NCBI GenBank assembly: GCA_015680685.1
Contig: MNCI01001745.1
Location: forward strand, 1,137,330 to 1,200,976
DNA length: 63,647 bases
Reading direction: 5' to 3'
Source of the DNA: Gnetum montanum
Lineage: Eukaryota; Plantae; Gnetophyta
Below, in pieces: positions 1 through 63,190 of this stretch. Position numbers and translations under genes: made by a program. A model generated the notes under the pieces. It saw only the letters and a program-made list of their open reading frames with translations, made no database searches and was not told where the DNA came from. Position 1 is the stretch's first letter. Every line of letters starts with the position of its first letter.

Positions 1-905
1 GAAGCTCTGGTAGATTTATCACTCCAGAGTTAGAATTTTTCCCATGTGCCCACAGTAGGAGTCCTAGAGTGAACGGCTCTTTATTCGAGTAGCTTGTAAC
101 CTGAACGCAAGTTGTGTACGATAATAAAGACAAAATTGATTGGATAAACCTTGCAGCATGTGGTTTTATTGTTGTTTATTTATTTCTTTCCTAGTGTGTA
201 CAAGTACGACTTGATTATGAGCAGCTACGGACGTGTACGGCTAATCAAGAAATCGGTTGCTTGTCGCAACGCGTGAGTACGACTTGACTACAAGCATTGA
301 CTGCTTGGTAACCCAGTAGCATATTCCAGGATTCTGTGCTTGGTAATCCCAGTGGTAGTTCAGTGTGTACGGCTAGTCAAGGAATCAGCTGCTCATCTCT
401 AGGCTAGAACGTGTGATAAGTACGACTTAGTTACGAGCACCCACGGGTGTGTACGGCTAGCTAAGGAATCGGCTGCTTATCACACTTAAGCTAAATAGGT
501 GCCTCAGTACGACCACTTCGAGCACTTGCGTTACGTGTGGTGATCCCAGTAACGATTAGCGTTTGGTAAGCCACAGTTGCATAGTTTAGGGTGTGTCCGG
601 TAAGTGGGAACGGATGCTGACGCTAGTTAATTTAGACTTAGGACATTAGTTAGAGTTAGCTTAGTTTCTCAACCCTTTCCTCTCATAGCTTAGAAGATAA
701 ACTAAAAAATACCAAAAAAATCACATACCTCAGACTTACTTAACCATACACCGTGACACTTACAAGCAAGCCTGGGAAGACAACAAACGATTAACCCCAA
801 GTGTTTCTTGTGGTGTTAAGGCATTTAGTCTGCGGAGTTCGACCGGATCGCGCATGCACGCTCGTATTCGTATGGTTGAGTGTAGGGGTACCTCGCCACT
901 CATCA
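1..905 (+). mobile_element. Young Ty3/gypsy LTR (Athila-like TGAT...ATCA termini), copy 1; the first ~117 bp lie outside the window
   Basis: Colinear with 23463-24364 at roughly 90% identity by eye. Ends ...CCACTCATCA at 905. Followed by GTATTAAAT with no PBS, so it is a 3' or solo LTR. CpG-rich against a CpG-depleted background. Confidence 0.9.
68..619 (+). ncRNA. Structured-RNA module array in LTR copy 1 (five hairpins with CGA / GWA(T)CGGC internal loops)
   Basis: Paired stems TCTTTATT/AATAAAGA, CTTGATTA/TAATCAAG, CTTGACTA/TAGTCAAG, CTTAGTTA/TAGCTAAG and CCACTT/AAGTGG, each flanked by near-invariant loop strands. Confidence 0.7.
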
Positions 906-21190: not shown

Positions 21191-23373
21191 GCATAACCTG
21201 TTTATAGTTGTTATTCCTTAGTCTACCTTTTGTTGGCCTAGTTAACTTACATTTTCACTTTACCGAATATTGCCATATCATCACATGATTCAACTAATTT
21301 AGCCTAGCATATCCTTATGACATGAACAAAACATAAAATAGAGAAGGCATGTAAAACTAAACATAGTCATGATTACATAGTGTGACAAAGGTTCAAACAC
21401 CATATAAAATGAACATAAGTCCAATAGCCATAGCTACACTATGTAGCAATAAAATAAAAAACAATAATAAACCATCTCTCAATAAAATCATCAAAAAAAA
21501 TAAACTAGCCAAAGATATAATCAATAGTTGGTGCTAGGGTGTAATTGGGGATGGTGAAGGATCACTTTTGTCTTGACCACTAGGGATCACTGCCATCATC
21601 TATATCCTGCAATGATTAAAATAAAACATGTTAATAACCAATAGAGGCTTTAACATTGTAATAAAAATTCCAAAAACAAACCAAAACCCTAAAATTAGGC
21701 ATATACAGTGTAGTCCTAAGCCTATAAAAAATTTTAACAAAAATCCAAAACCATAACCACATCCAACAAAAATTACACAAAAAACTTGGAATAGTAGAAA
21801 ATGGCCATAGTGAATCATTGATAAAAAATATGATTTTTTTTTAATATATCAAAAATAATGTCAAACCCTTCATAACACCTCCAAGGATCCCTAAGAACCT
21901 AGTACATTGGTTAAAAATGTTTTGCAAAGTGTCAACATTGCTCATATTCATAGGGTAAAGCCATAAAAGCCAAGAAGTTCACCATACATAGATCTACGAA
22001 AAAAATCACCAAAAATTAACTATGTAACCAACATTGATGATTCCATAGTTTTTGAAGTCTTAAACCATAAAATAAAAATCCAAAACTTGAAAACCCAAAA
22101 ATTCCTAGCCGTTTTTTGCAGAAAAAAGATACCAAAATAACATGAAAAATAGCCATAAACTGAAAATCCATTACACACTAGATTATGGAAACATTTGTAG
22201 AAAATCAACCATAGGTCAAAATTTAGTGGTTTAAAAACTATTTCAACCAATAAACATAGTACTACAACCCTATTGTCATAAAAATTATAAAATGCTAACC
22301 ATTTGCATACAAAAATAATACAAAAGTGGTGTTTCTTTTTTGCTGAAAACTACAGAAAAAACACCTAGGAAAGACTAAAATAAATTTTTAATTCAATATA
22401 CATCAATCCCAAAACAAGAGAAATATTGAAAACCCATAAACATAGCCTAGATCTAACATTTGGATTTTACAAAATTCAAATATACCTAATACACAAACCC
22501 ACACAACCAAAAATCCCTAGGAATCCAATGAAACTTTGCATGAAATGGATAAGAGTTGTGTACTTGGGGATCATGGTAGATGAACCTTCAATGATCAAGT
22601 ATCATCAAAGGTGGAAGAGGCCTTATGTACAAGCATCAACCTCCTGTAAGGCTAGATTCTTGTTGATTGCAACCCTCCTCTATGACATCTTGAACAAGTA
22701 GCACTAAAACTAGTAAAACCTTTAGACTTCTGGGGCCTCTTGCGATAATTGTGCCTACTCCTTGGGATAGAAAGGCAAGACTACATTGGGAATAAGTGTG
22801 GTGGAGGAAATAGTAGGATCAAAACTCTGGTGCTATGTGTTGAAGCGTGGGAGTGATGAAAGAATTATGATTTGTGTAAACTTGTAGTTTGGAAAATACT
22901 TCCAAACTTATGCACCTACCTGCAAAACCTTGGTTTTCTCAAACTGTTCATCCAAGTTTCACTAAACTCAATGATCATAATTATAAATTAAAACTACACT
23001 TGGTAGGTGGAAAATCAATTCATACAAAAACTCAAACTTAAGGTGGACCCCACTGGATGCCTCTACAATAAGCCAATGGAAATCCTAAAAAACTTAGGGT
23101 TTCAGTGTCTCCATGGTGACTACACTAGGGTTTAATCATCTACAAGCCTTGAAGTTCATTCTAAACCCCAAATTCTATCAAAACCCATTTCACAACTATC
23201 CATACATGTCATGAGACCTTATGCCTAAAATGGAAAACTAGGTGTTAACATTGATGGAAACTAAACACTAAGGAAGGCTAAAAAACATATCAAAACCTAC
23301 CATTTTGGTAACTATGCTAACTAGAATTTTGACTACATTACCTAGTGATGAGACGCAACTTGCACTAGGCCAC

Positions 23374-23420
23374 GATATCGCGTATGCGATATCACGTCCC
23401 GCCGCCATATCTATAAATAA
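23374..23420 (+). promoter_or_regulatory. LTR U3 promoter: palindrome GATATCGC-GTAT-GCGATATC and TATA box (TATAAATA, 23412-23419)
   Basis: Read directly from the sequence. A pyrimidine-rich initiator-like tract lies ~25-30 nt downstream. Confidence 0.65.
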
Positions 23421-23530
23421 GAGGCAGCACTCCCTTCATTTCCCAATCCTGGCTAGTGTAGCGAAGCTCTGGTAGATTGATCACTCCAGAGTTAGAATTT
23501 TTCCCCATGTGCCCGCAGTAGGAGTCCTAG

Positions 23531-24079
23531 AGTGAACGGCTCTTTATTCGAGCAGCTTGTAACCTGAACCCAAGTTGTGTACGGCAATAAAGACGAACTT
23601 GTTTGGATAAACCTTGCAGCACGTGGTTTCATTTATTGCTTTATTTCCTGCTTTCCTAGTGCGTTCAAGTACGACTTGATTATGAGCTTCTACGGACGTG
23701 TACGGCTAGTCAAGGAATCGGCTGCTTGACGCAATGCATGAGTACGACTCAATTACGAGCATTGGATGCTTGGTAACCCAGTAGCGTATTCCAGGATTCT
23801 GCGCTTGGTAACTCCCGGGTCTAATGTGTACGGCTAGTTGAGGAATCGGCTGCTCATTGCTAGGCTAGATCGTGTGATAAGTACGACTTAGTTACGAGCA
23901 CCCATGGGTGTGTACGGCTGGCTAAGGAATCGGCTGCTTATCACACGTAGGCTAAATAGGTGCCTCAGTACGACCACTTCGAGCACTTGCGTTACGTGTG
24001 GCGATCCCAGTAACGATTAGCGTTTGGTAAGCTGCAGTTGCATAGTTCAGGGTGTGTCCAGTAAGTGGGAACGGATGCT
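23531..24079 (+). ncRNA. Structured-RNA module array in the solo LTR (hairpins 23531-23609, 23660-23733, 23731-23860, 23871-23947, 23967-24079)
   Basis: Stems differ in sequence between units but always pair. Loop strands CGA and GTACGGC/GAATCGGC/GAACGGC are conserved. Compensatory changes are seen relative to copy 1. Confidence 0.75.
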
Positions 24080-27000
24080 AACGCTAGTTAATTTAGACTT
24101 AGATTTTAGTTAGAGTTAGCTTAGTTTCTCAACCCTTTCCCCTGGTAGCATAGAAGATAAGCCGAAAATACCCAAAAAATCACATACCTCAGACTTGCTT
24201 AACCATACACCGTGACACTTACAAGCAAGCCTGGGAAGACAACGAACGATTAACCCCAAGTGTTTCTTGTGGTGTTAAGGTATTTAGTCTGCGGAGTTCG
24301 ACCGGATCGCGCGTGTACGCTCATATTCGTATGGTTGAGTGTAGGGGTATCTCGCCACTCATCACCTAGCATAGTTCCAAGTTTAATTGTGTACTCTACC
24401 ATTAAACAAACTCCCAACTAACTTTGAAATCATCACACCACACCCCAAATCCTAACCACAGCTTCTAGTAGCTTCGAAATTCCACAAAACTGGTCAAAGA
24501 GCACCAAAGATCATTTCTCTTACATGGGATACATTGTGGCAGGCTTCACCTATTATGGCCTACATATTCCCAACATATTTGAGTAAGAAATGAACGCCAA
24601 AATATGGAAATAGCCTCCAAAATGATGCACCTTGAACCCCAAAGTCACTGGTAAGCCTGAAACCCAAGGAAATCAAGCAAAAGTAGAAACTTTCCTACTC
24701 CCACCTTCAAACTATGCTAGTGATGGCCATGAATACACTTACCTATGTATTCCTCGTGTATTTGGAAGAAGATATATCAATAAAAGTGAAAAATAATCTC
24801 TAACTTAACATATCTTAACCTTAAAAATCCTTCAAAAACTTTGATGACCTTGCATTGGCAAATTGTAGGACAACAGAAGGTAAAAGCTCATTTCCACCTT
24901 GGGTGTACATTGAGGAAGCTTGGGACTATGCTAGCCAACATAGCCTAAGTGTAGTTCCATTTTAAAGGCATGAAAATAGGTCACCAACATGCCAAATTAG
25001 CTTTTGGAAGCATCATCTTAGTTCTAAACCTTGCCAAAGACTTTAGAGACCAATAAATCATAAAAACCAAGTTAAAAATCAATAGAACTTAGCCTACACC
25101 CCTCAACTATGCTAGGATTACATTGGTCACTATAGTCTAAGGGTGTTGGATTAGTCTAGAACTCAAATTATCATTAAAGCTAATCATCTTGGACTTGAAA
25201 CCCTACTTCTAAGCACTAGTGATCGAAATACTTGAAAACCTAGTCGATTAACCATGGAATTTCACCAAAATTAAAGATTCATCTTGTGACTATGCTAGAG
25301 GAGACCTAGACTATGCTAGCCAATGTAGTCCCAATGTAGTCATGAACATAGGATGATTTCACTAATAATTTGACCCTCCAAGTAGTCCAAAGCTTGACTA
25401 GGAAACCCAAAACATTGTTTGGCCTTACCCGTACAATTTCACCTTATTATGATCATGGGAATGCTAGATTCCATTCATCTACATGAGGTAGGCCTAGAAC
25501 TATTCTAGCCAATGTACTCCCAACATAGTCTCTACCTCAAAATGTTTGGCCAAAAATTTATTTCTTGAAGCCTAGATCCTTGAAATCCTAAAGTGAGTTA
25601 TGGTGGCCAACATAGTTATGAGGTGTGCATGCCCAAATGCCATTTACAATGGCCTATTTTAACTTCCAAATGTTTAACCCTTCTCTTCTAGGACCGTGTG
25701 CTACCCTAGGAAGCTACCAAAGCACTAGTTTTCACTCTAAAACCCCATAAACCCATTTCTCACATGCATCAACATTAGGACTACAATAGTCAATATAGTC
25801 CCAGTGTAGTCATAAGTTTTGGCACCATCTTCACCTTCTATAGGGTGAAAACAAGGTCAAAATGCACTAATCCTCCACCCTAGTCCATTATGTAAGCCAT
25901 ACAGACCATTAAGAACTCATAACTAGCCACAAAAAACCTAGAAAATCACCTATGGATGTTGACTATGTTAGGGCCTATTTTGACTATGCTAGTCAATGTA
26001 GTCCCTAGTTGGGGCCAATGTAATCATAATAAAAGATGTCATTTATACCTTCAAACAACCTTATAATGACCACAACAAATTCCCAAAATCTTCTATTAGC
26101 CCCATATCCTTCCACTATGGCCTACTAAGGCCTAAAACTAGCAAAATCTAACCATAATTGACCAATATTGATAATGTTTTACCATATGTTTCCTGTCTGA
26201 ATTGGTATGTCCTTGTTCCATCAAATGTTTCTATCATTGACATAATTTGTACCTTGGCCTATTTTAGCATTAACTAATGTCATTGAACATTAAAAGTACC
26301 TTATTTAATTTTACCCAACTTCATTCCATGAATATTAGCTTGAATATGATCTTCTTTAACCACAATTTGGTCATCATTTCACCTCATTTGGTTTTTATTT
26401 GGCTTTGTATTAACCTTATTTACCATATCATCTCACTTGTGGCCTTAATTACCCTATTTGACCATTGTTGTATGTCATTTGATGGGGTTTGACCATCCCT
26501 TGACCATTTTAGGCATCATTTGACCATCATATGATTTGCTAAGGACTTAAACTAGCAACATGGCCTACTAAGGCCTAAAACTGGTAATGTGTAACCATAG
26601 TTGATCATGTTTAACCTTATACTATCTTAATTTACCCCTAGTGATCACTACTAACCATGTTTCAACCTGGTTTGGATTTAATTTAATTTTTCTACTTAAC
26701 TTCACTTTATTATCAAAGTATTTTACATTTTTACATGTTTAAGCTTATACTATCTTAATTTAAGCCTAAAACTGGTAAAGTGTAATCATAGTTGATCATG
26801 TTTAAGCTTATACTATCTTAATTTACCCCTAGTGATCACTGCCACTTGATGTGCTTATGTTGTCATGCAAGAATAAGCTAGGAGGATAAGAAAGCAAATT
26901 CAACTAGTATTAAAGCCTAAATAACCCCCTCTCATGATTTTGTTAAACTAAGTTAACCTTACATGCCTAAATCTTAAGCCTTAAAGCCATTCTACCATAC

Positions 27001-36948: not shown

Positions 36949-37179
36949 ATTAGTATCAAAGAAAATCATGACTCAAGGTCCATTCAAAACCATGGATCAA
37001 CTAAAACATCAATCTAATGATGAACCATAAAGACACAACATAAGGAAAATCATTTCTCATCATTGGATGCATCACACATCTAAGAATATCATTGACCAAT
37101 GAAGATCTAATTACACCTCATCAAGACTCATCAATTTCATGAGATGTTGATAAGATAAGAATACACCAATCTAGGTAAC

Positions 37180-39304
37180 TCTTACCCATCAATTTATTAT
37201 TGCTTGCCTTCATAAATATGGTTTTCACATTAATTTTATTAAAATTTTGGAGACTCTTTTTACCGACGCCAATGCCCTTGTGGCTACTAACATTGGCTTA
37301 ACTAATTGCTTCAAGCTTGAGTGCTATGTTAGGCAAGGTTGTCCTCTTGCTCCTTACCTCTTCATTATTGCTGCGGACTTTTTGTGTCATGCTATTCATA
37401 AGGATAAGGAACAAAATTTGCTTCAAGGTATTTTCATTGATCATAATGTTCCTTCCTTATTGAATATGCATTTTGTTGATGACTCATTCTTTATGATAAA
37501 AAATGATGCTCTTATTGTTGATCGTCTTTTTTATTGCATTGATCAATATTGTAGACTCTCTGGCTCTCAAATTAATTGGTTCAAATCTTGTATCTTTTGC
37601 AACAAATAGGTTCAAGCCTGGGCGTTGTCTAAGTCTTGGCAATTTTTAGGAAAGGATCAAGTTTTTAAGCTTCTTGGCATTCCCTTTTCTTTTGGCGGAT
37701 CATCCAAAACATTATGGGATGTCACTGTGAAGAAACTTGAACAAAAGCTTATAAAGTGGAAGGAAAAGAAGCTATCTATGGCTGGTAAATTTATTGTCTG
37801 AAAGCATATTCTCCAAGCTACCCATGTGTATTACTCTTCTTGTTGGGCTCTTAGCATCTCTGCTTATCGTCACATTGATCAACTAGTCAAACACTTTCTT
37901 TGGAACAGCAGCCATACTAAGAAAGGATTTTGTCAGGTTGCTTGGAACATCTGTACTTCTCATAAAGAGGACAACGGTTTGGGCCTCATTAATTGCTACA
38001 AATAGGGCATTGTGTTATGTGCCAAATGTATGGCCAAATGCTTATCTGGCTCTAAACCTTGGAAGCTTCTTTTCCTTAAATGCATATAGCTTGGGAAGCC
38101 CAAAGGTAGTAATTATTGGAATAATACTCATTTCCTTAAATGGATTCTTTTTCCCATTGGTATTACCATTTCTGGTTCTATTGTCATCAAACACATTTGG
38201 AAGGCATGGTGTTATATTAGTTAGTTTTGGAACTTTAACACTATCACTATTTCTTTCTCTACACTTGATAAGCTTTCTCCTTGGTGGATTCCCATTCACA
38301 ATGAACCTTGGGCCATTAAGCATCCTCGTATATGTAGCACTTGGGATAAGCTTGGCATCTCCTCCCTCTCCTCTCTTTGCATTCATAATCATTGGATTAC
38401 TTGGAATGAATGTCACCTTATTTACGGTATTAATGTTGCTCAAAAGTCTACCTTTTGTACGATTTTGGATAGCTTGAACAAAAATGTTGTTATTCAAGAC
38501 TCCCTTGATGGTTTTTTAGATCTTTCTTGGATTTCTGGTCATCAAGTTTTTCCCTCTCATTCTAAGATTTTTTACTCTCTTATTAATTCCACTACTAATA
38601 TTTGGCCTAGATTCAACCATCTTTGGCAAGTTAATCTTAATGTGCAGGTTTGGAAGCAACGTATTCAGACTATTTGGACTACTCCTACTTCTTCAAAGAT
38701 TCAACATTTTCTGTGGTATTTGATTCACCAAGGTCTTCCTGTGGGTGTTCGGCACTCTCATCTGGGGGTTCCTGACCCACGATGTCCTATTTGTCACAGG
38801 GAAGATGCATTTACTCACTGTTTTTTTTCTTGTCCCCTTGCTCATAGCTCTTGGATTTGGTGTGGTAGGTTTTTACAGGGTTTTTGACCAAGCTTGGATT
38901 AGGTTCTTTTTGGTGACACTCCGCATCTTCAAGGCTCTTTGATTTATATCGGGTGTCACCTTCATCCCCTTATTCTCCATGCTATCTAGAAATTTATATC
39001 GGGTGTCACCTTCAACGTGATTCTCCTACTAATATTCTCTCCTTGTCTATTCAAGGAGACATTGTTCAACAACTAATGTTGCAGTTGAGCTCTTGAACTT
39101 TTTCTCTCCCATTTTTCCTAATTTCTTGTAGTTTCTCCTCTTTTGAGGTGAGCTTTTCCCCTTTGGCTGTTAGTGTCTCCTTCTTTGAGACCTCTTCATC
39201 TGTTTTGACCCTCTCTTTTATCCCCTTTGTACTATTTTCTTTTTTCTCTATTAATTAAATTTATTTTTTGGGGCCTGACACCCCCCAACTCTTACCGATC
39301 TAAA
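37180..39304 (+). mobile_element. 5'-truncated L1-clade LINE (RT C-terminal half and zf-RVT)
   Basis: VRQGCPLAPYLF...HFVDDS...SGSQINWFKS; KIQHFLW....GLPVG......CPICHREDAFTHCFFSC. 3' end TTACCGATCTAAA. Confidence 0.9.
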
Positions 39305-42959: not shown

Positions 42960-45900
42960 TGAAACACCACAAAAATTTGCATGTTATAGCCAATTTTCAT
43001 CATGTAGCTTTCACCCCATGAAACTCAAGGTAAAACTTCATTGTAAATGTAAAGATTGTAACCCATAGTGGGAAATTTTACATACTTTATACTTTTGGGG
43101 TTGAAAAATGTTTTAAAAGTGTTTAAAGTCTTGTTCCCCAAGTAAACAAAGTTACCTAGTATCTGTATTTGGGCTTGTGCGATCAAAAATTCCTTTTAAA
43201 ATACCAAAAAAAGGTAATTTAATGGGTTTTATTGGGGGTATACACTTTTCTATGCTGAAAACACATATAGGGGGATAAATCTAACCTACCCCAAGTGTGG
43301 AAGGGTGGGGGTCTTGGAAACTTGCTCCCCTCAATGTGGGGACTACATGCACAGTGTAGAAATCTTCCCCCCTCATTGTGAAAGTTTCTTCCTAGTATGG
43401 AGTCTTCATCCCTAGTGTTGAAAATTGCAACCCCCTAGCATGAAAGCTACAAAAGCCAAAATTCATCACTTTATTCACTTTGACATTGACCAACCACTTC
43501 AACAAGCATGGTGGAGATCTTAGTGCAAAAGATTCATCTCTAGCATGGAAGGTGCAGCATGATTACTATTTATAGTAAATGGAATGGCCATGGGGAAAAG
43601 CATTTACTATGTATAGTAACACCCTAAATTTGGGCATCCATCTCACCTGAATGAGGAAAACATTTGGCAACCAATTTGTTGCCATTTCATAGCCATTTTG
43701 CAGCCCCATTCATGGCCCAAAACCTATAAAAACTAGCCTTAAACACCATTTATGGCTTTAGTAATTTTTAGTAGGTTCCATTCTTTTATCACTTGAATAA
43801 ATTGAGCATGCATACATTTTCCAAGCAATAATTCCACACCTAGTGCATTTTCAAGCACTCAAGGGCTCTTGAAATCTCCCACATTTGCATTCTCTTAAAA
43901 CCCAATGTGGAAGCATTTTCACCCTAAGATTTGTGGATTTTTGATGTCAACATTGCACTTTTGGAATTTTTGGACCCCAACATGAAGCAATCTCACATCA
44001 AAATTTTCCTCTTTTCTAATCTCCCAGTAATAGCCAATGTTGTAGATTTGAGAATGCAGCACCATAGGTTCAATAGCATCTAGAGTGGTAGGACATTTGG
44101 ATCATGGAGTTAACTACATGGACTTCAATAGATCCTGAACCCCTGTCCAACTAAACCCCCTTGCTACCCATTTAGGCATCATTTTTACACATTTCTCGAA
44201 CTTATTCTTTATTTTTTCTCATTAAAATTTCAGGTTTTGGGTTTTGTGTGCAAGATATATTTGTTTATTTGGTATTTGAATTTGTTATTATTTTTTCTTG
44301 CATTCCATTTTATTAGACTATTTTTCAAACCTCCTAAGTTTCTAGTTGATCTACTAAACTAGCTAGGGCACCTTAGATTCCATTTTCATAGAGGCCCTAA
44401 GGATTCAAGGTTGAGGATTTTTATGCATTGTATCCATAGTTATGTGCGTTATTTGAATCTATTATTAGTTTTTCTTGCATTCCATTTTATTAGACTATTT
44501 TACAAACCTCATAAGTTTCTAGTTGATCTACCAAATTGGCTGGGGCACCTTAGATCCCATTTTCATAGAGGCCCTAAGGATTCAAGGTTGGGGATTTCTA
44601 TGCACCATATCCATCGTTCTTTATTCTAGTGATTGATTTTTTTCAATCGTAATAGTTTTCTTGGTGCTAGAAAGAGCATCTTCATTCAAATTTTATGACT
44701 AGATTTTTTCTTCTTCATTTCCAACATTACCATTTTCAAGCTTTTCTTTGATTTCTTGTAGCCAAGACTTTGAAGAACCTACATTGGTCTTTTCCCGCTA
44801 TGACCAAAACTGTAGCATGGAAGTTGCAAGTGGTTGGGTGGTGGCTTTTCACAACAACTGCTTTGAATTTTTTCAGCCCAAAATCCAATGTGAAAACCTT
44901 CCCCCCACCCCCTCCCCCTTTTTTTTCTTTTTCTACCAATTTTTATAGCTTCCAAAGTGGGTGTTTCAACAATTCTAGAAATTACCAAACTTCCAAAAGT
45001 TAGCTTCCCCCCATTTTTTCTCAAGCTAAGAAAATTGACAACCTACCAAAACTAAGTTCTTAGTGGGGGAAATACTGAATTTTTACTTTCATTTTCAGAC
45101 TTTTCCCCTTGTCAATGTTGGGTTAGGAAGTGTGAGATTCCCATTATCTCACCCCCACCCCCTTCTTTCCCCTCTTTCCATACCCTGCATAGAATCAATT
45201 GGAAAGGATAGTATGGAAGAGGCTTAATACCAACTTCCCCAAAGCCAACATTGCAAATTGAAAGCCTTATTTCATATTTTTGTAGAAAAAACTCCTAAAA
45301 GATCAATGCTACCCCTTCTTCCTTATGACCAAAGCTACAGCATGGAAGCTGTAGGTAGTTAGGGGGTGGATTTTTGTAGCAATTGCTATGGATTTCTCTA
45401 CCCTAAAGCTAGTGTTGAAACCTTTCCCCTTTTCTTTTTTGTTTCCAAATTCATTCTTTTTAGCTTCTAAAGTTGGTGGTGCAGCCCTTCTATGAATTAC
45501 CAAACTTCTAGAAGTTAGCTTCCCCCCATTTTTCCAAGCAAAGAAACTTGGTAACCTACCAAAACCATGTTTTAGTGAAAAATCCCAACTTTCCACTTTG
45601 ATTTTTAGCCTTTTCCCCATCAAAATTGGAATAGAAGAGGTGAGATTCTTCTTATGTCATTTCCCTTTCTTTTCCTCCTATCATACCTAGTGTAGAGGTA
45701 GTTGGGAGGCCAACTTGGGAAAGGCTTGACACCAACATTTTCAACTTTTCATTTTTAGCAAAGGGTAAACCCCTCTTATCCCCAACTTACTAATTATAGT
45801 AATTACTTCATTTCTAGCCATTATTTTTTATTTAAATGTTTTTGAATTCCATTTACTAGAATTTACTTTTATTTTATCATTTATAGCTTTTTTTTAAGCC

Positions 45901-47245
45901 ATTCTTAGCACCATAGCCATGTTTTTCTAGCAAACTACAAAGTTGCCCCTCACCTTCACTAGCAAAGGTCCTAGCCAATAAGCCATGAGGGTATATGACT
46001 CCAAAGACCCTGTTGACATCAAATGTAGGTAATCTTTGAGAGTTAGAGGGAAAATTCATGATTTTGTAGTAATAAATGAAGATCGATATAACTTCATCTA
46101 CACCAAAATACAGGCTAGCATGTTGATTTCACATTTAGAAGCAGAAGCCAAAAGGGAGTTCAAACTTATCTATCATAATGGTAAGGAATACATCTCTTCC
46201 TCCTATGAATAGATACCTATATCTAATATCTATGTGGGTATACTAGCCTAATTTATTGAGATGGAGGAAGAGGATGAAAAACATAGCTCTAAGAAATAAC
46301 AAGAAGAGAAGGATAAATTTAGGCAAAATCTGAGTCCAAAAACATCCTGGGGGGATTGTTCCAAAAAGCAACCTCCAAGGTCATTGAGCCTTCCTCTAAT
46401 GCTTTTATTTTCTCCATGGGCATGGTGTTACCATTTTCCACTTATTTCTACCCAACCACAGCTAGTCGCACACCAATGATAGCCATGCATCAAACACAAT
46501 CAATGCCACAAGCTATGATCCATAATCCATTCATGTCATTTACCACATGACCTCAATCTATGCAACCATAAATGGTGTTTTTTACCATCACAAATCCATT
46601 AACTACTTGTGCAGGGCCCACAATTTGACCCTAAGCAACTCAAGGATCACACAACCCATTTATCCCATTTGTGCCTTAAGTATTAACACAAACATCCTTT
46701 TCCTTGTTTAGCCCACAAGCTACAACCATAATGAAACCACTTCCTTCTATCATGAAACACATAGCAAGGCCACAAGCCTCACAACAAATACCACAATCTT
46801 ATGTACATACCCCATAACTAACAGGGCCACCACAGGGCTTTGATCAAGCCTTCCAAATGATACAAGACCTGATCGAGGAGTTTAAAAGGCTTAAATCCTC
46901 TACCTCATAGACTATCAAGATTATGGACTTCTACTAGGATGATCCCATAAGTCCTATAGTCCCATCCTTGACACTTCCTCTTGGTGTCCCTATTCTCTAA
47001 TTTAGCAAATATAATAGAGAAGGTGATCCTAATGTTCACCTTATTACCTTTTAATCCAAATGTTTACTCTTACAGCCATGGCCTCATACCATCATGAGGA
47101 TTTTCTTTATTTCTTTTACTAGGAAAGCACTTGACTAGTACCACGTGTTACCTAGGGGATCCATATCCTCTTTGGAGGACTTCATTGTCCAGTTTGTCAA
47201 CCACTTCAAGTATAACATGAAACTGAACACAACACTTGACCAACT
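42960..47245 (+). mobile_element. Tat/Ogre-type element B: 5' LTR 42960-44654, PBS 44662-44676, 5' UTR, gag interrupted by element C
   Basis: Starts TGAAACACCAC. LTR end TTTCAATCGTAATA. gag FSKYNREGDPNVHLITF is homologous to A and C. Confidence 0.85.
44270..44620 (+). repeat. ~178-bp tandem duplication within LTR B
   Basis: Two near-identical units (TTCTTGCATTCCATTTTATTAGACTATTTT...GGCCCTAAGGATTCAAGGTTG). Confidence 0.9.
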
Positions 47246-50200
47246 TGAAATACCACAAAAACTTGCATGTTATAACTAATCTTCATCATGTAGCTTTCAC
47301 CCCATGAAAATCAATATAAAGCTTCATTTTAAATGTGAAAATTATAACCCATAGTGGACAATTTCACATACTTTATACTTTTGGGACCAAAAAATACCTT
47401 ATAAGTGGCCAAAGCCTTATTCCCCAAGTGAAAACAATTACCTAGTGTCTATATTTGGGCTTGGGGGAGGGGTCAAAAATGCCTTTTGAAATGCAAAAAA
47501 AGGAAATTTGATGGGTTTTATGGGGGATATAAATTTCTCTATGCTAGAAACACATGCATGGGGATAGATCTCACCTACGCCCAACGTGAAAGGATGGGGG
47601 TTTTGGAAACTTTCCCCCTTCAATGTGGAGACCACATGCACAGCCTGGAAACCTTTCCCCTTAGCATGGAAGTTTTCCCTATCATGGAATCTTCATCCCT
47701 AGTGTAAAAAATTACATCCCCCAACATGGAAGCCACAAAATCCAAAATTCATCACTTCATGCAGTTCAATGTTGACTAGCCACTTTAGTAAGCATGGTGG
47801 AGAGATTATTGTAAAAGATTCATCTGTAGCATTAAAGGTATGTCTTGGTTACTATTTATAATAAATGGAATGGCCATTAGTGAAATCACTTACTATCTAT
47901 AGTAACCCCCCAAATTTGGGCATCCAACTCACCTGAATTTAGTAGTCAATTTATAGCCATTTTTGTAGCTAAATCATAGCCATTTTGCAGTGCCATTCAT
48001 GGCCCAAAGAAACTTTAAAAACTAGCCTCCAACATAATTTATAGGTTCAACATTTTTGACAAGATTTAGCCCTTTACATTGTTAAGAAAATTCTCAAAAA
48101 CGTTCAACCATTTTTTCACAATTTCACACTTGGGACATTTTTAAGCACTCAAGGGTTATTGTAATCTCCCATGTTTGCATCCTCATGAACCCTATAGTGG
48201 AAGCATAATCACCTTGAGATTTGTGGATTTTTGGTATCAACACTACACTTCTAGGATTTCCAAACCCCAATGTGGAGCAACCTAGCATCCAAATTTTCCA
48301 CTCCTCTCACCTTCCAACAGTGATCCAACTTGCAAAAGTGACGTTGTAGTAGCTAAGGAAGGTTCAATAGCATCAGGAGTGGCTTAGTACCTAGATCATG
48401 GAGCAGATCCCATTAACTTCAATAGGATTTAAACTCCTACACTAGTGAACCCCTTTTTCTTGCCCACTTAAGCACCATTTGTATGCATTTCTTGAATTTA
48501 TTATTTATTTTCTTTCTCAATAAAGTTTTAAATTTTGGGTTTTTTGTACAAAATATATTTGTTATTATCTATGCATTATTTCAGATCTGCTATCAATTTT
48601 ACATCCTATTTCTTTCTTTCTTTTATTTATTCCCATGTTTTGCATTTCATAAGTCCTTCGTTGATTTTCCAGATCAACCAAAGTATCTTGAATCCCATTT
48701 TTCTCATGGAAGCCCTCAGGATTTTGGGTTGGGAAACTACTGCATTAAGGATCCTTAGTTTTTCAAGTGACCAAGGTTTTCAATCACAACAATTTTCCTT
48801 GAGACTAAAAGGATGGCCTTTGCCTAAATTCTATGACCATATTTGTTCCTTTTGTTGCCATTTGCAACCTTTTCCTTGATTTTTGTAGTCAAAACCTTTG
48901 AATAATCAATGTTGATCTTTCCCCCCCTGTGATCAAAATTATAGCATGGAAGTTGTAGGTGGTTGGGTTTGGCTTTTTACAGCACTTGCTATGAATTTTA
49001 CAGCCCAAAGCTAGCGTTGATATCTCTACCCCTTATTTTTTTCTTTTTACTATCAAAACTTTATTCTCTAGTTTCTAAAGTGGATGGTTCAACTCTTCCA
49101 TAAGTTGGCTTCCTCCCATTTTTCTAAGTTGAGACAATTAGTAGCTAGCTAAAACCAATTTTAGTTGAAAAGCACCAACTTTTCACTTTGGTTTTTAGCC
49201 TTCCCCTCATCAACATTGAAGTAGGAGGTGTGACATTCCCATCATCTCACCCCCCTTCTCTTCCCCCTTTATCATACCTAGCATGGAAGTAGCTAGGAAG
49301 CCAAGGCTGGTGAGGTTTGTTACCAATTTAATGATCAAACATGATTTTATTGCAAGTTGAAAGCCATTTTATATATTTTTTTAAGCCAAAACCTCTAAGG
49401 AATCCAATGTTGCCTTTAGACCCCTATAGTAGAAACCTTAGCATGGAAGCTGCAAGTGGTTTGGGTGCTAAAATTTCACAACATCTGCTGTGAATTTCTA
49501 GAGCAAAGCCATCGTGGAGGCCTTAATAACCATTTAATTTTTTCTACCATATTTTTTGCAACTAAATTAATGTTGGTTTTCATACCAGCCAAACCTACTA
49601 TTCCCTCCTTTATGGTAAAAGTTGGAAACTTGCCAAAAACATCTATGGAAACTACCAAGGTTTCATTTTGGTCTTCAAACTTCTGTGCTCAACCCACCCC
49701 ACTCCCACCACCCCCCACCCCCTCGCCCCCCACCCCCTCGCNNNNNNNNNNNNNNNNNNNNNNNNNNNNNNNNNNNNNNNNNNNNNNNNNNNNNNNNNNN
49801 NNNNNNNNNNNNNNNNNNNNNNNNNNNNNNNNNNNNNNNNNNNNNNNNNNNNNNNNNNNNNNNNNNNNNNNNNNNNNNNNACTCTCCAACATTGAAATAA
49901 GAATGTGTGATATTTTCACTACCTCACCCCTCTTCTTTCCTTGCCTCTCCCTCCCACCCTACCATACGTAGTGTAGAGGTAGTTGGGAGGCCAACTTAGG
50001 TGAGGTTTGAAACCAATTTTTTTAATATTCCATTTATGGTAAAGGGGTAAACCCCCCTTATCCCACATTTACTAATTATATTAAGTACATCATTTTTTGC
50101 CATTTTCATTTTCTTTAATAATTTTTGAATTCCATTCACTAGAAGTTACTCCTATTTTACCATTTATAACCTATTTTTAAGCCATTCTTAGTACTATAGC

Positions 50201-53200
50201 CATGTCTTTCCAAAAATTCACCAAATTACCCTTCATCCTCACTAGCAAGGATCATAACCAACAAGCCATGAGGATGTATGATTCCAAAGTCCTAGTCATC
50301 ATTGAGTGTAGGCAATCTTTAAGGATCAAAGGGAAGTGTCTTGATTTTTCAGTCATAAATGAAGATTGTTATAACTTCATTTGTGCTAAATACAAGCAAG
50401 CATGTTAATTCCCTAAATTAAAGTTGAGGCCAAAAATAATTTTGAGCTCATACATAAGCATGGAAAGGAGTACATCCTTTTCCCATATGACCAAATTCTC
50501 CTTAACAATATCTATTCTAGCATCCTAGGCCAATTGATTATCATGGAAGAGGAAGATGACAAGCCTAGCTTTGAGGAACAACAGGAAGAGAAGGATGAAT
50601 TTAAGGTAGAATATAAGCCTAAAAACATCCTTGGAGGACTATTCCAACAAACATTCCCCAAAGTCACAATGCCTTCCTCTAATGCTTTTGTTTTCTTCAT
50701 GGGCATGGCGCCACCATCTTCCACTCCTTCCTACCCTACTATGGTAAATCCCACACATGTTATAATGACACATCACACTTAACTAATGCCACAAACAAAC
50801 AACATTAGCACATCAATATCATTTATAACATAGGCTCAATATATAAAACCATCAATAGTCGTTGTTACCAGCACAAATCCATTAACTACTCACGTAGGGT
50901 CCACCATGGCATCTCAAGCAACATAGGGGTCATACACCCCATTTGTCTCATTTGTGCCTCAAATACTAGCACAAATATATTTTCCTTTATTTGGCCCACA
51001 AGACACAACTATAATGTAACCTCTTCCTTCTATCATGCAATCCATAACAAGGACACAAGCCTCACAATAGACACCACAACCTTATGTACAAACCTCACAA
51101 CCTATGGGGCCACCATAAGGCTTGGATCAAGCCTTCCAAATTATTCAAGACCTAATAGAGGAGTTGAAAAGGCTTAAAGACTCTACCATAAAAACTATCA
51201 ATATTATGAACTTCTTCTAGGAAAATCCCATAAGTCATGTAGTCCCACCCTTCACACTTCCTCCTAGTGTTCCCATTCCACAATTTAGCAAATATAATGG
51301 AGAAGGTTACCATAATGCTCACCTTAATATATTTTGATTAGAATGTTTAGTCTTGCATCTATGTTCTATACCATCATGAGGATTTTCCCTATGTCTTTGA
51401 TTGGGAAAGCACTTGATTGGTATTGCACATTACCGAGAGGATCCATATCCTCTTTGGAGGACTTAGTAGCCTAATTTGTCAACTACCTCAAGTATAACTT
51501 GAAGCCTAATACAATGCTTGGTCAACTCATGATGGTCAAGTAGGGATCCTTAGAACCTATACAATAATTCATTCAGTGGTGGAATGAACTATTAAATGAA
51601 ATACCAAATTCCATGGTTGAAGCCCACTTGTTAGCCATAGTCAAGGGAGTAGTTAATGACTTCATCAAGTCCAAACTCTACTACCTTGATCCATAATCTC
51701 TTAGCCAAGTGTTCTTGCAAACTAAAAACATAGAGGATGCTATGGATGCCAAACATGATCCAACCTATACAAAATATAAAAACCAACACACTCAAAGAGA
51801 CAAAGAAAAGAGAAAACACAACAACACTACCATAGTAATTGTAACTATGGAAAAAGAGACCACAAACCAAGGGCCAAAGTTCAATTTGCCAAAGCATCAC
51901 CAATGATTGTAGTAATCAACCATTAACTTTTGGTACCACTACATCAAAAACAAATAGGCCTTACTTTGAAATTAAGGATAGGTCTAAATACACTACATTT
52001 CCATTAAATCCATCCAAGTTGCTAGACTAAGTACTAAGAAATGGGCGCATGAAACAAAAACAAATGACCAAAGCTGCTTAAAAGAAACACGAGCAACTAT
52101 GTGAAATAGGAAAAGATTCCATTGAGGCAATGAAGGATTATCCCCATTTGCCTAGATACCTAAAGCTAGATCACTTTTTCCATTATCATCAATTTTCTAG
52201 TCATGACACAGAATTCTTCCATGTGCTAAAGGATGACCTACAAAGGATGATAGATAGGGGGGAATTGGTCTTAGATGCTTCTAACCTAGTTCAACCACAA
52301 AACTAGTTGATGCAAGTCTACAAAGATGCATTGAATGCTAATGATATCCCCTATGTTCTTTTAGCATTCAACATCAATGATAATCGAAGACCTAGAAGAA
52401 AACCATTCGTGATTCAAGTACCCCTCTACAATGAAAGGGCTTCATCAACTTTCCATAGCTCAAGATCCCACTTCATTATGAGAGTACCATCACAAATGCC
52501 TCTAAGGAAACCTTTTTTCATCAAGGTCTCCCAACCCAATACTACCCAAAAAACTATAGCTCAACCAACTGGACAAATAGCCCTTATGGTGGCCAATGCT
52601 ACTACCTCTTCCTTACAACCAATAGTTGAAAACCAATAGCCAAACAAAGGAATAAACATAAGAAAAAGCCTAATAATAAGGGAGACAAACATAAAGTGGT
52701 ATAAAAGGAAGTGGGTCCATCGAAGCCCACTTCCATTTTGGCTATACCCATGACCTCCTCTATTCCAACCTCTTCAACCAACAAGCCACAAGAGGACACC
52801 AAAGCCAACAACCAAAACAACAAGGAAAAGCCACAACAACTATAGCCTAAAGTTGAAGTTCACATTTTGGGACACATGAATAAAGTAAAGAACAATCAGG
52901 ATCACAAGCCCATGGCCAATGATAGAAACTTCCTCAATGCACTGGACCAAATCAGGCAATCCCTTAAGTAGAAAAACACAACCCAAAGCTTGAATGACTT
53001 GATCATGACTTCTGCCACATATCATGAGGCTCTAGTCAAAATCTTAACCTCCATACCTATTAGTGAGGATATTCCTACTAATGAGGAAGCCATCCAAGAA
53101 GTGATGATTCATCCCTCACTAGAGGAGTAGAAGTCAACACCCCTAACATTTTGTGATAGTGAAATTAAGGTTAATCCTTAGAATGGCAACGTGACTGCAA

Positions 53201-53752: not shown

Positions 53753-55476
53753 TATTACAATCAAAAACCTTTGTTGCTGGAATGAAAAACAAAGGATCCT
53801 TAGTGTAAGCAGTTCCCCAACCTCAAATGCCCAGGGCCTTTGCAATAAAAATGGGATTCATGGCACCCTAGCTAGTTTTGCAAATTAAGCAAGGACTTAT
53901 GAGATGCAAAATGTGGAAATATTCATAAATCCAAATAATGCACAAATAATAAATTTCCTTTTGAACACAAAACTCAAAACATAAAAACTTTATTAAGAAA
54001 GAATAAAGAAAAAGTTAGAGAAATGTGTACAAATGGTGCCTGGATGAGCAAAAAAGGGGGGTTTCACTTGAGCAAGAGCTCAAATCTCATTGAATCCAAT
54101 GTGATGAGCTCCACGATTCAGCTCCTAAAGCACTCTTAATGTTATTGAAATTTCCTTTACCACTGCAACCTTGGATCTATCAATTGGGTCACTCAAGCCT
54201 ACAATGCTTCCATGCTAGGATTCAAGAGAATGCAAGTATGGAAACTTGTAAGAGCTCTTAAGTGCTTGAAAATGTCCCAAGTGTGGAATTTTGTGTATCC
54301 AAATTACATATTACTTATATGGCCAAAAATTATTGAACTTTGTCAAAAACATAGAACCATGAGAAAAATTGTTACAGCCACTAAATGGTGTTTAAGATTC
54401 ACTTTTATAGGATCTTTGGACAATCAATGGGGCTAAAAATTGGCTATGACTTGGTTGTATATTGGCTATAAAATTTCTACAAGTTGGCTACAAATTTAGG
54501 TGAGATGGGTGCCCAAATTTTGGGGGTTACTATACATAGTAAGTGCTCCTTCCATTGTCATTCCATTTACTATAAATAGTAACCAGGGCATGCCTTTCAT
54601 GATGGAGATGAATCTTCCACCCTGAGCTCTTCACCATGCTTGTTGAAGTGGTTGGTCAACATTGAAGTTCATGAATTCATAAATTTTTCTTCTTGTGGCA
54701 TCCACATTGGGGGATTGAATTTTCCATGCTTGGGAAAAGTTTCTACATGAACTTTCACATTGGGGGGAAAGTTTTCAAGTTGGGGGAGGGGGGAAGAGAA
54801 CTTTCACATTGGGGAAAAATTTTCCAAGATAAGGGGAAAAGTTTCCAAGCTAGGGGAAAGTCTCCAAGTTATGCATTTGATCTCCACATTGAACAAGGGA
54901 AAATCTTCCAAACCCTCCATCCTTCCATGCTAGGGGTAGGTGAGATCTACCCTCCTACAAGTGTTTCTAGCATAGAAAAATGCATATCCCCCATAAAACC
55001 CATCAAATATAGATAATAGATGACTTTTTTTTCACTTGGGGAATGAGGCTTTAATCACTTATGAGGCATTTTTCAATCCCAAAAGTATAACATATGTGAA
55101 ATTACCCATTGTGGGATATAATTTTCACTTTTACAATGAGATATTTCCTTAGGTTTCATGCGGTGAAAGCTACATGATGAAGACTAGTTATAACATGCAA
55201 AATTTTGTGGTGTTTCTATGGCCCCTCTTTGTTGATGCCTAGAGGATTGTCCCAAGAGGCACTAACAAAGAATACAAAACATCACTACATATTATAATGT
55301 TACAATGCATATAGGCCACATGATAATTAGGCTATCCAAGTCATCAATGTTGCTAGTTTAAGGCAATGGTGGGCCATGGTACCAAGTTAAGGTCTTAACA
55401 ACCCATGTTGCAAGTTTAAGGTCATAGAGGACCATTGAAAGAAGGCTTGCTTGTTGACAATCTATCAGCTACATGT

Positions 55477-58400
55477 AGTATGAATTTAGATAGCAATGAT
55501 TGACCAAATTGGCTAGCTCATTCCCATCCATATTAGCTATTTTGAATGCTCCATTCCTGTAGGCTCTAGTGATAAGAAAGGACCCTTCCCAGTTGGCTAA
55601 GAATTTGTTTGTATGCTCACTAGGTTGTCCTCCTTGATCTTGCTTATGCTCAAGTTATGGTGATATTCTTTCTTTTTCCTCTCTTGATAATTCTTGATGT
55701 GAGCAACGACTTGCATATGCCACTCCTCCACCAAATCTAAGGCTACCATCTATAACTCCTTCTTCTGCTCGTTGTTGATGAAGTCGATCAAGGCTACTTA
55801 GAGTGATGGCACCTACAATTCAAGAGGTAAAACAACTTCAAAATCATAAACAAGGCTATAAGGGATCATGTGGGTTGCCATGCAATAGGTTTTTTTATAT
55901 ACCCATAGTGCATGGACAAGCCACTCATGCCACTTCTACTTACTATTGTTGAGCATCTTCTTAAGCAAGTTGATGATGGCCTTGTTGCTTGCTTTTTCTT
56001 GTCTATTGGCTTGAGGGTAGTAAGAGGAGATAGAATGCTTAATGCCTAGGTCATGACAAAAATCCTTGGTTTCTTAGCTACTAAATTAAGGTTTTTTGTC
56101 TATAACTATGATCTTGGGTATGCTCAAACAAGCTATAATGTTATATAGGATAAATTTGCAAACTTCCTTAGATGTGATCTTCCTTAGGGGAATAGCCTCA
56201 ACCCACTTGGTAGAGTATTTGGTTGCAGTGATGATGAAGTTATGTCCTACAGAAGACTGAGGCATTATGGGTTCAATGATATCCAACCCCCATTGTTCAA
56301 ATGACCATGTTATCTAGGTTGTATGTAACTTAGTTGGTAATACATGTATTAGGTTGCCATATCATTGGCATGTGTCACATCACTTAACCTTTTATAGGAA
56401 GTCATTTTCTATATGGGGCCAATAGTAGCTTAACCATGTAATATTAGTGGCCATGGCTCTAGGTCCTATATTCCCTTCACAAACTCTCTCGTGAACCTCC
56501 TCTAGGACTGTTCTAGCTTTGGCTTTACTAAAGCACTTTAGGAGTATGCCATCATAGGATTTTTGACATAATGTGTTATCACCTACAATGACATACTACT
56601 TCAATTACTTGCATATGGCATCCTTTTGAGAAGTAGTAGGCATTATGAGGATTCATCATGTATACAGTAAAATTTGAGATCATCATACCACTCCTTCGGA
56701 GGAGAACTATGGACGATGTCCATAAAGGTATCCTTAGTATTTTATGTGATGGAAGTAGCATAGTCCATGGTTAATGTGCACAACTTACTAAACACATGAA
56801 ATCATACTAAGGGCTAATGTTGAAATTTCATCAACTATGGCATTTTTGTTTTGAGGTATGTGTTGGATATCAATATCTATGAATTTTTATAACTAGTTTC
56901 CTAGGTCATAGTAAGGTTGTAAATGCTTAGATTTGCATGCATAGGCTTTGGTTACTTGGTTGAACATAAGTTGTGAATTTCCTTTGATGGCTATGTATCT
57001 AATTCCTAGGTCATGAGCTACCATTATCCCTCTAATCAAACCCTCATATTCTGCTATGTTGTTGGTACATGAAAACCCAAAACAATAGGTTAAGGGTTGG
57101 ATCTCACCAAATGAAAATGTTATGATGGAAACAACACTAGCCCCATGGATAATTGGAGCTCTGTCAAAGTTTATGATTACCTCGTAATCCTTAGGCACTT
57201 GGATAACTATGTTAATGTGTTCATTAGGGAACTCAATGTCTATGGCTCATTGGTCATCAACAAGTAAAACTATGAGTTGTACAACTATAGCTTGACCTTT
57301 TGTTGAGGACTGAGTACATAATGAAGGTTGAATTCTGTGGTTATGGCTTTCCATTAAGCTATATGGCTACTTTTGTAGATGTTGATCCTTATGGCCTTGA
57401 GTATGTTGTCCTTACGAATTACATTGACTTGGCTTCTAAAGAGGTAGTGCCTCCATTTCTTCAAACAGAAGACTAGTGCTAGACAATACATCTCCACCTT
57501 AGTGTATCAAGTATTATAGGAAACTAACACATGGTTAAGGTAGTATACAAGCATTTTTGTCCTGTCATCACATTTTTGATAGAATAGAAAGGTAATGGAT
57601 GTACCAAAGATGGCAAGAAAAATGTAAAATAGTTTACCCTCTTTTGGAGGATAGACTATTAGTAGTTGTGCCAACTCTTGCTCAAGGTTTTCAAAGGCCT
57701 CTTGGCATTGAGTAATTTACTCATAATGAACTCCTTTCTTTAGCAAGTGTTGCATAGGCTGTAACTTATCCATAAGCCTAGTGATAAACTTAAGAATAAA
57801 CTATAATATACTTGTAATCCCTGAAGCTCTTTAAGGTTGGTAGGTATCTCCAATTTGGATATGGCCTTAACCTTATCAGGATCTAAATGTATCCCTACTT
57901 TAGAGATTACAAATCCAAGCATCTTACCAGTCTTGACATCAAAGACACACTTTTTAGGATTGAGCCTAAGCTCATATTTGAGGCATTACTTAAACATGAG
58001 ATCTAGGTCATTAGCTATCTTAGACTTCAGAACTATTTCATCTACATAATCATTAAGCAAACCTAACATGTAATCACTAAAGATATAGGCCATGGATCTT
58101 TGGTATATTACTCTAACATTCTTAAGGCCAAAGGACATCTTGGTATAACAAAAGTTATCCCATGGGTCATAAAATTCATGTTGAGCTGGTGCTCTACGTT
58201 AATCCTAATTTGGTTATATCCTAAGAATCCATCCATAAAGGACAACAAGGCATGTTTGGCTATAGTATTGATAAGTTGATCAATACTAAGCAAAGGGATG
58301 TCATCCTTGATGGTTGCTTTATTTAGGTCTTGAAAATTAATGCAAATATGGATACTCCCATTTTTCTTAGGAACTACCACTATGTTGGATACCCACTTTG

Positions 58401-58917
58401 CGTAATCAATAGCCCTAATGAAACCTGCTTGGTAGAGCTTTGAGATTTCATTGTGAACTTCCAAGGCCAAATTAGCTCGAATCTTTCACACTTTTTGCTT
58501 AACTAGTCTAATGGTAGGATCCAATATGATGTTGTGTTGGACTAGACATGGATCTAGGCCCAACATATCTTCATATGACTAGGAAAATGCCTTAAGGTTA
58601 GTTGTAAGATTTTGGTGATACCTTGAGCATATTGAGGCTTGAGTGAGGAACTTAGTTTAAGGATTTTCTCCTCACCACTATGTGTTGCGATAAGAACCTC
58701 AACTAGAGAATCTTCAATTATGTCTCTTGCTTCTAAATTAAGGTTTTAACTGGGTTTTTAGGCCATTCTAGAGTTTTCTCTATTGAGGCTATGTGGTCTA
58801 CAAGACTCTTAGGCTCAAGATCTAGGTAATCAGGTCAATACACTATTTAATATCATTGTGAGGTTCATGTAGATACAAATGCAAACTAATTTGCTCCTAG
58901 GTACTCATACTTTAACC
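55477..58917 (-). pseudogene. pol: pol of element D: RT - RNase H - additional RNase H - integrase
   Basis: WVSNIVVVPKKNG..CINFQDLNKA..LSFMDGFLGYNQI; YVDEI; LGFVIS..GIHLDPDKVKAI; WGLDIIEP...STKWVEAIPL; YYPQANRQ; FLANWEGSF. Confidence 0.92.
56893..57198 (-). pseudogene. Additional (archaeal-type) RNase H domain, diagnostic of Tat/Ogre elements
   Basis: INFDRA...CTNNIAEYEGLIRGIMVAHDLGIRYIAIKGNSQLMFNQV, located between the native RH and the integrase. Confidence 0.9.
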
Positions 58918-62600: not shown

Positions 62601-63190
62601 CCTTTTTGAAAAAAATTAGATCTAGGCCCAATTGATAGTTGATCGATCATGCATGTTAACCTCTGGGGTTGCTGATGTTGATTATCAATGTTGGGTGTCA
62701 AGATTTGGCAGTTTGTAGGCTTCTAAGTGTCTCATGAAATCTTCCCCATTTATTCGATGCTAGGAATGATGGTCCTAGCATGGATGAGAATGGTTTGATA
62801 GTTTTGTATCATATCTAACCCATTTTTGAGCTTCTGGAAGCTCCAAAGAGTTATAATAGGGTTTAGGGTTCACCAAGCATCAAGAAATGGTCATTAGGTG
62901 ATCAATCTAGGTCCATTTTGGCTTCCCCCATCTATCAATGTTGAGGGTGAGAAGCTCAACATGAAAGAAGCCTCCCCCAACATGGAACGCATCAAATCCT
63001 AGATTTTGACTAGTTTTGACTAGGTTTGGTGAGGTTCTGAGGCTTTCAGAGATGATTGGAGGGATTCTAGGTCATGTCGGGTCCACTTTTGAGTCAAATT
63101 TATGATATATGGATGTTGGGAGGCAAGAGTGACTATTAACTCCATTCTTCCATGCTATGCACTTTTTCCCCAACATGGAAATCCATGGTA
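59700..63190. repeat. Satellite-like tandem array (~180-190-bp unit) inside the spacer of element D
   Basis: CATGCATG anchors near 61558, 61738, 61919, 62098, 62276, 62458 and 62648. Spacing is ~380 bp (dimers) at 60582/60969/61344. Each unit has a TTTCCAYRYT...CATGGAAA inverted repeat. Confidence 0.8.
59924..60122. other. Assembly gap (N run) after a C-rich tract
   Basis: Read directly from the sequence. Confidence 0.99.

Follow-up and report, generated by a model that had tools for sequence, protein, structure and literature searches.

LTR insertions and their surroundings

The stretch of DNA analysed here, referred to as the window, comprises 63,647 nucleotides of the Gnetum montanum genome. 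It is AT-rich and repeat-rich, with LINE-like and RNase H remains, and carries two copies of one long terminal repeat (LTR) on its plus strand. Copy 1 lies at 1..905, with about 117 of its bases cut off by the left edge of the window, and is 91% identical to positions 118-1019 of copy 2 by blastn. Copy 2, at 23346..24364, measures 1019 bases and has 7-base terminal inverted repeats (TG...CA) at 23346 and 24364. It is flanked by the target-site duplication CCTAG on the left (23341..23345) and on the right (24365..24369), so that its inverted ends and its flanks together identify it as a solo LTR. The same boundaries are reflected in family depth, which is high from 23400 and drops after 24364. 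Behind position 905 of copy 1 no primer-binding site is present, and thus copy 1 is a solo or a 3' LTR. The two copies were considered as paired LTRs of one element and rejected as such, as no TGG junction follows 905 and a separate target duplication flanks copy 2. None of the nine open reading frames of at least 100 aa between them gave a Pfam match. Copies 1 and 2 are independent insertions and likely belong to different subfamilies. A preliminary description of this DNA had recognised two LTR copies; however, it began copy 2 at 23463 instead of 23346, and it neither saw that the insertions are separate nor named their lineage. Since they are separate, the differences between them mix lineage changes acquired during replication with decay after insertion.

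Alignment of 1-905 with 23463-24364 gives 75 substitutions over 896 sites, including 53 transitions, 29 of which fall at CG or CHG. The ratio of observed to expected CpG is 0.90 and 1.01 in the LTR copies, compared with 0.10 in the remaining window, which points to young insertions within old and heavily decayed repeat DNA. Copy 2 contains a single TATAAAT, a TATA-like box at 23412..23418 (plus strand), and a single AATAAA, at 23586. As the TATA-like box stands 66 bases into the LTR, the start inferred from it would place all the hairpins described below downstream, in R/U5, as transcribed parts of a roughly 900-base leader. Additionally, a branched long stem near the 3' end of the LTR (738-881 and 24197-24340) is predicted in both copies, with z scores of -1.8 and -1.6; it is free of double changes, and it lies where coverage of the family is deepest.

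The rest of the window holds older repeats. A tandem duplication of about 4.28 kb with 72-83% identity spans 42960-51527 and 53800-55300, including a third copy in inverted orientation; fragments of it occur near 15.4 and 31.2 kb. Within it, the comparison of 45650-46100 with 49931-50385 gave 6 double changes against 2.5 (P 0.025) in the control test described below. A broken gypsy-type pol lies on the minus strand at about 55600-58700, with an RNase H-like RVT_3 hit at 56896-57246 and stretches that resemble reverse transcriptase and integrase by eye. These remains are possibly Tat/Ogre and, as far as seen, unrelated to both LTRs. LINE-like reverse transcriptase and zf-RVT fragments occupy 37175-38887 on the plus strand, and two diverged tandem arrays lie at 61555-62708 and 44273-44618, their periods being about 180 and 177 bases.

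The LTR family is very abundant and high-copy. It is partly present in 20 of the 24 runs listed, and at least half of its words occur in 12 of the 24. In each of the four runs examined, between 46,444 and 69,532 pieces of contigs map to 1021 bases, and depth collapses after 24364. Two of the listed runs are recorded as RNA, at a share of 0.17; as contigs, they are uninformative for start or strand. In all four runs the loose ends that follow 24364 look by eye like a tRNA-Asp/Asn primer site, at a cell agreement of 0.40-0.44 with other flanks mixed in. A primer site for tRNA-Asp/Asn behind the LTR ends is described for Athila in the available part of the ATHILAfinder report (10.64898/2026.03.20.713144). 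The loose ends thus suggest that the plus strand is the sense strand and that Athila is the likely lineage; the TATA-like box at 23412 agrees with this orientation.

Judged from sequence features, the family is probably Athila-like. Athila is a plant Ty3/gypsy lineage among the non-chromovirus OTA elements (PMC6317226, in the portion available). According to the accessible parts of PMC6317226 and 10.64898/2026.03.20.713144, the likeness extends to a TG...CA LTR of about 1 kb, an ATCA end and a 5-bp target duplication, as well as to the solo LTR and perhaps, by eye, to a family junction resembling a tRNA-Asp/Asn primer site. In contrast, an LTR hairpin array is absent from the descriptions in those parts, and the comparison covers the LTRs of the present family. 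Neither the window nor the pattern scans contained an internal region, a full-length element or a gag of this family, and the pattern scans gave no family copies in viral, metagenome or prokaryote contigs. The 23 + 2 loci returned by a loose two-arm pattern were dismissed as chance, since each was an isolated GC-rich match and blastn found no similarity to the LTR at E<0.01.

A five-hairpin array in the LTR

Five homologous hairpins are predicted on the plus strand of the LTR, all of them 3' of the TATA-like box. Hairpin 1 (78..130; 23541-23593 in copy 2) shares the distal bulge motif of the others and holds AAUAAA (123-128; 23586-23591) in its 3' stem arm. Hairpin 2, a short module at 196..267, has its main stem at 201-263 (23666-23728). 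It is followed by hairpin 3, a long module at 274..395 (23739..23856), by hairpin 4, a short module at 411..485 (23872-23946), and by hairpin 5, a long module at 504..620 (23965-24081). Hairpin 5 has a shorter core of other sequence that still pairs, and its apical domain is a homologue of the one in hairpin 3. The homologous apical domains of modules 3 and 5 suggest duplication of a short-plus-long unit.

Each module is built from a core stem followed by a two-pair CG/CG helix, which has a GC-type bulge on one side and, on the other, an A-against-GUA loop closed by G-U. The resulting asymmetric loop, 5' CG-A-G against 3' U-GUA-CG-GC, is near-invariant. Modules 2-5 also have a related proximal loop below the core, in which the bulges are GAA and GC, and the asymmetric-loop motif recurs about nine times over the five hairpins. 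Letters in the loops hardly change, whereas the stem pairs vary among modules and use different Watson-Crick pairs. Furthermore, the apical domains of hairpin 3 (306-352) and hairpin 5 (538-573) contain a two-fold symmetric internal loop, UAAY against UAAY, with UGG/CCA flanks. Symmetry of this kind is typically found where dimeric proteins bind.

Uninterrupted helices in the module folds reach only 6-12 bp. The whole LTR does not fold better than its shuffles (z -1.27 and -0.29 for the two copies), and among the five modules taken individually only hairpin 4 is significant, with z scores of -4.3 and -3.9. AUG is scarce, with 6 occurrences against 16.5 expected and 9 against 16.3. No match to any of 4227 Rfam families was found in the window, and the LTR of copy 2 gave one weak hit outside the array, at 21.7 bits compared with a gathering score of 57. 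A retrozyme was considered and rejected, as no Rfam hammerhead occurs in copy 2 at E up to 5. Structural variants of the array were also observed. In one contig from each of two runs, three letters stand in place of the hairpin-3 apical domain (23764-23823) and the inner stem remains closed. At further joints of low depth, 79-295 bases between modules are skipped; near-identical arms can be misplaced, and these joints are maybe an artefact.

Paired changes between copies, modules and family members

The clearest differences between the two copies lie in the core of hairpin 3 (283-290/374-381 in copy 1; 23748-23755/23835-23842 in copy 2), where 8/8 positions pair in each copy. Pair 285-379 is U-A in copy 1 and C-G in copy 2 (23750-23840), and the adjacent pair 286-378 is G-C in copy 1 and A-U in copy 2 (23751-23839). 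This exchange of two neighbouring pairs on both sides of the stem, already noticed in the preliminary description, is confirmed by the alignment and the pair table. Pair 288-376 differs as C-G versus U-G. Two further points from that description hold as well: the inner stem of hairpin 3 pairs in the folds of both copies, and in the cores of hairpins 2 and 4 the copies are distinguished solely by U-A versus U-G (215-244 and 432-459). It had not mentioned two additional double changes. One, in the hairpin-3 apical stem, is A-U versus G-C at 321-337 and is of CpG type on both sides. The other, at the base of hairpin 2, is A-U at 200-264 against U-A at 23665-23729; it comprises two transversions and is paired in both minimum-free-energy folds. 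Doubles at 244-257 and 300-360, the fourth of each one-sided fold, and at 52-197 were left out, being absent from the fold of the other copy or lying in an indel region.

A two-copy null was applied to the region 66-622, in which one copy was folded and the other read, with outcomes permuted within letter and CpG/TpG/CpA context. Three doubles are common to both folds, compared with a null mean of 0.87-0.93 (P(>=3) 0.050-0.057). When adjacent pairs are merged as one event and the hairpin-2 base pair is left uncounted, P(>=2) becomes 0.21-0.24. The plus strand gives 4 doubles per fold, 3 of them shared, and the minus strand 0 and 1. Broken pairs are not below the null in the 66-622 test (13 versus 14.6-14.9), though the whole-LTR test finds fewer than the null in one of its directions (15 versus 27). 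A simpler context model was used for 20 control tests on the window's other repeats, where the lowest P is 0.025 and one test falls below 0.05. With P at 0.05-0.06, and about 0.2 after merging, the two-copy signal alone is borderline and only suggestive of selected pairing.

Stronger support for structural selection comes from the paralogous hairpins, the strand bias of G-U pairs and the lower rate of substitution in stems. The pair list used here was hand-drawn from folds of these same sequences and contains 111 pairs. Over hairpins 2-5 in both copies, i.e. eight modules, 94.9% of 178 cells pair, compared with 24-36% in slid controls, and 7 of the 23 pairs change on both sides. Double-changed cells number 15 versus 4.7 in shuffles, and 0/500 shuffles reach 15, in a control that ignores the relatedness of the modules. 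Further pair types in hairpins 2-5 are not above the shuffles (13 versus 13.3). Variation affects 14 of 34 stem sites within hairpins 2-4 and involves both sides in 6 columns (P 0.002; 0.04 when 5 are counted), and collapsing adjacent doubles brings the paralogue test to P 0.014-0.07. One column takes A-U, G-C and C-G, and the cores of modules 1 and 5 retain pairing with different sequence. On the sense strand, G-U outnumbers A-C by 14:2 and 15:2 over the 111 pairs (P 0.002 and 0.001). Moreover, substitutions between the copies affect 13 of 222 stem sites and 43 of 331 others (Fisher P 0.006). Four architecture pairs are broken in one copy, all by G-to-A type changes at CpG or TpG. The earlier proposal of selection on structure is thus probably right in view of the five paralogous hairpins, the G-U bias and the fewer stem substitutions, although the swap between two copies, on which it had been built, is insufficient by itself.

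Matching changes on both arms may also arise at once and without RNA selection, through short template switches between the arms of a DNA hairpin, a route that the preliminary description had not considered, or through 2-base micro-inversions. In the accessible part of PMC8794818, arm-to-arm template switching makes multi-base compensatory changes in one step and is documented for hairpins of RNA genes. The present swap is an exact TG/CA exchange between arms, TG and CA being reverse complements, and neighbouring pairs tend to carry the doubles (285/286; outer pairs 0/1; core pairs 2-4). However, this process predicts perfect Watson-Crick stems, whereas all five modules keep G-U pairs and the shared asymmetric bulges next to the swapped pairs, and the uninterrupted helices are only 6-12 bp long. 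It does not account for the one-strand preference of G-U over A-C, and it leaves the lower stem substitution unexplained. As the full explanation it is considered unlikely; it may nevertheless be a source of variants on which selection acts.

Still less probable is a chance self-complementary tandem repeat that was homogenised from hairpin 2 and in which TG and CA arose by CpG deamination. Such an origin would agree with the high share of transitions and of CG or CHG sites among the substitutions given above, with TG and CA both being decay products of CG, and with the CpG-type double at 321-337. Likewise, the hairpin-3 arms of copy 1 match hairpin 2 at the swapped sites, and the low-depth joints between modules, though maybe misplaced contigs, would fit conversion. 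The family data argue against it. A former CG at 23750-23751 predicts A>G above C>T, yet C>T is never below A>G there in 4/4 runs, and nearby CpGs have decayed in only 2-9% of depth, i.e. 91-98% are intact. In the four runs, the two letters of the 5' arm change in equal or nearly equal proportion (0.38/0.37, 0.28/0.26, 0.19/0.19 and 0.46/0.46, among the 40 of 202 rows listed and with depth flat per contig). The swap therefore acts as two haplotypes rather than as CG decay, and CpG decay after insertion does not fit it. The 3'-side shares are mismatched, at 0.30-0.37 and 0.47-0.55, in data that other modules confound and in which 5' and 3' alleles are unphased; the two 5'-arm changes do not appear among the 14 rows of that second variant listing. 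At 23840, G>A lies 17-18 points above the neighbouring T>C in 3/3 large runs, suggesting another stem class.

The stem of copy 2 is the majority state of the family, with 54-81% of depth at 23750-23751 in 4/4 runs, and it is unique among the modules. Conversion from hairpin 2, which the preliminary description had offered as a partial explanation, could give the stem of copy 1, which might also derive from shared descent; however, it cannot create the stem of copy 2, which is found in no other module. As that stem is both unique and in the majority, the two compensated changes arose at least once. Finally, neither deamination nor hairpin 2 explains the transversion doubles (200-264, and the outer pair with A-U, G-C and C-G) or the paired cores of hairpins 1 and 5.

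A candidate RNA element in the LTR leader

Taken as a model, the array is likely to be a selected RNA structure on the genomic RNA of the element. With somewhat less confidence, and still as the favoured account, we propose independent insertions of a probably Athila-like LTR family whose five bulged leader hairpins are kept by selection on the RNA fold, and which probably bind an element-encoded protein, e.g. Gag. In this scheme, the modules would have come from tandem duplication, with a short-plus-long unit repeated, and the stems would drift by compensated steps during replication, with a tandem G-U intermediate available. The paired stems would serve as a scaffold on which a protein recognises the repeated loops, and the loop letters are proposed to be held because something reads them. 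Gag or nucleocapsid, picking full-length RNA for packaging, would be the first guess for this reader, and an export factor the second. Hairpin 1 would hide AAUAAA at the 5' LTR, as the HIV-1 polyA hairpin does by keeping AAUAAA inside a stem near the RNA 5' end, a likeness of position only (PMC2645353, in the part available). After insertion, copies would decay and lose architecture pairs by G-to-A type changes. The scarcity of AUG fits a leader that ribosomes must pass.

Retroviral Psi is a structured 5' leader for dimerisation and packaging, mostly a unique fold near or past the primer site. CTE and RRE are export elements, stem-loops with internal loops that are read by proteins. The yeast Ty1 RNA likewise has a structured 5' end, proposed as a Gag target, in the accessible text of PMC6844567; its folds are mostly unique and lie near or past the primer site, whereas the present array has five homologous modules inside the LTR, upstream of it. 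The available portion of PMC12786077 describes RTE (of IAP) and MTE (of MusD) as extended stem-loops with conserved internal loops that are protein-read and repeated or symmetric. Unlike these likenesses of form, no sequence or Rfam match to RTE, MTE, CTE or RRE occurs in the array. In the same portion, RNA export of plant LTR elements is said not to have been studied directly, and plants not to use NXF1. The reading by Gag or an export factor draws on the fixed loops and free stems and on the likeness to Ty1 and to RTE/MTE. A more specific possibility, held only tentatively and by analogy, is a modular RNA response element of about nine loop motifs and two symmetric apical loops, on which an element protein would assemble cooperatively for export or packaging in the manner of RRE/Rev or CTE.

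Among plant LTRs, the palindromes of maize Sireviruses (Ty1/copia) offer the nearest form, with repeated GC-rich hairpin units and module-sized indels in the part of PMC4728375 available. They stand before the TATA box and are tied to siRNA hotspots, in contrast to the present modules, which follow a TATA-like box, are bulged and show pair swaps; the string 'compensat' has 0 occurrences in the text of PMC4728375. Identity with the Sirevirus palindrome region, which is perfect and upstream of TATA, was rejected on these grounds. No such hairpin array in Athila or another gypsy LTR was found in the literature searched, which took in few subscription journals.

The fold may be real and yet serve translation or 3'-end control, through ribosome shunting or internal entry along the 900-base leader, hiding of the poly(A) signal, or limitation of Dicer by broken helices. 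The depletion of AUG and the short helices agree with these roles, as does AAUAAA in the hairpin-1 stem, comparable to the HIV-1 polyA hairpin (available part of PMC2645353). However, such roles do not need the same loop letters about nine times, and masking of the poly(A) signal would apply to hairpin 1 alone, whose folding does not exceed that of its shuffles, so that this reading has a slim chance of being correct. A DNA-level element, i.e. sites for transcription or anti-silencing factors or siRNA-attracting palindromes like the palindrome-rich hairpin regions of Sirevirus LTRs (PMC4728375, in part), is highly improbable: its motifs do recur exactly and CpG is retained as stated above, yet the retained CpG may simply be a sign of young age, the palindromes of Sireviruses lie before the TATA box and the present modules after it, and neither long-range pairing nor a G-U bias on one strand would be maintained by sites in double-stranded DNA.

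Structured leaders are expected in retroelements, and the surprise is limited to that extent; the modular, LTR-borne form of the proposed RNA structure appears new. If true, the modular response element would be the first described for a plant LTR retrotransposon within the literature searched. The repeated loop motif, with its support from pair swaps and its place in an abundant family, offers a concrete candidate for an export or packaging mark, together with natural variants.
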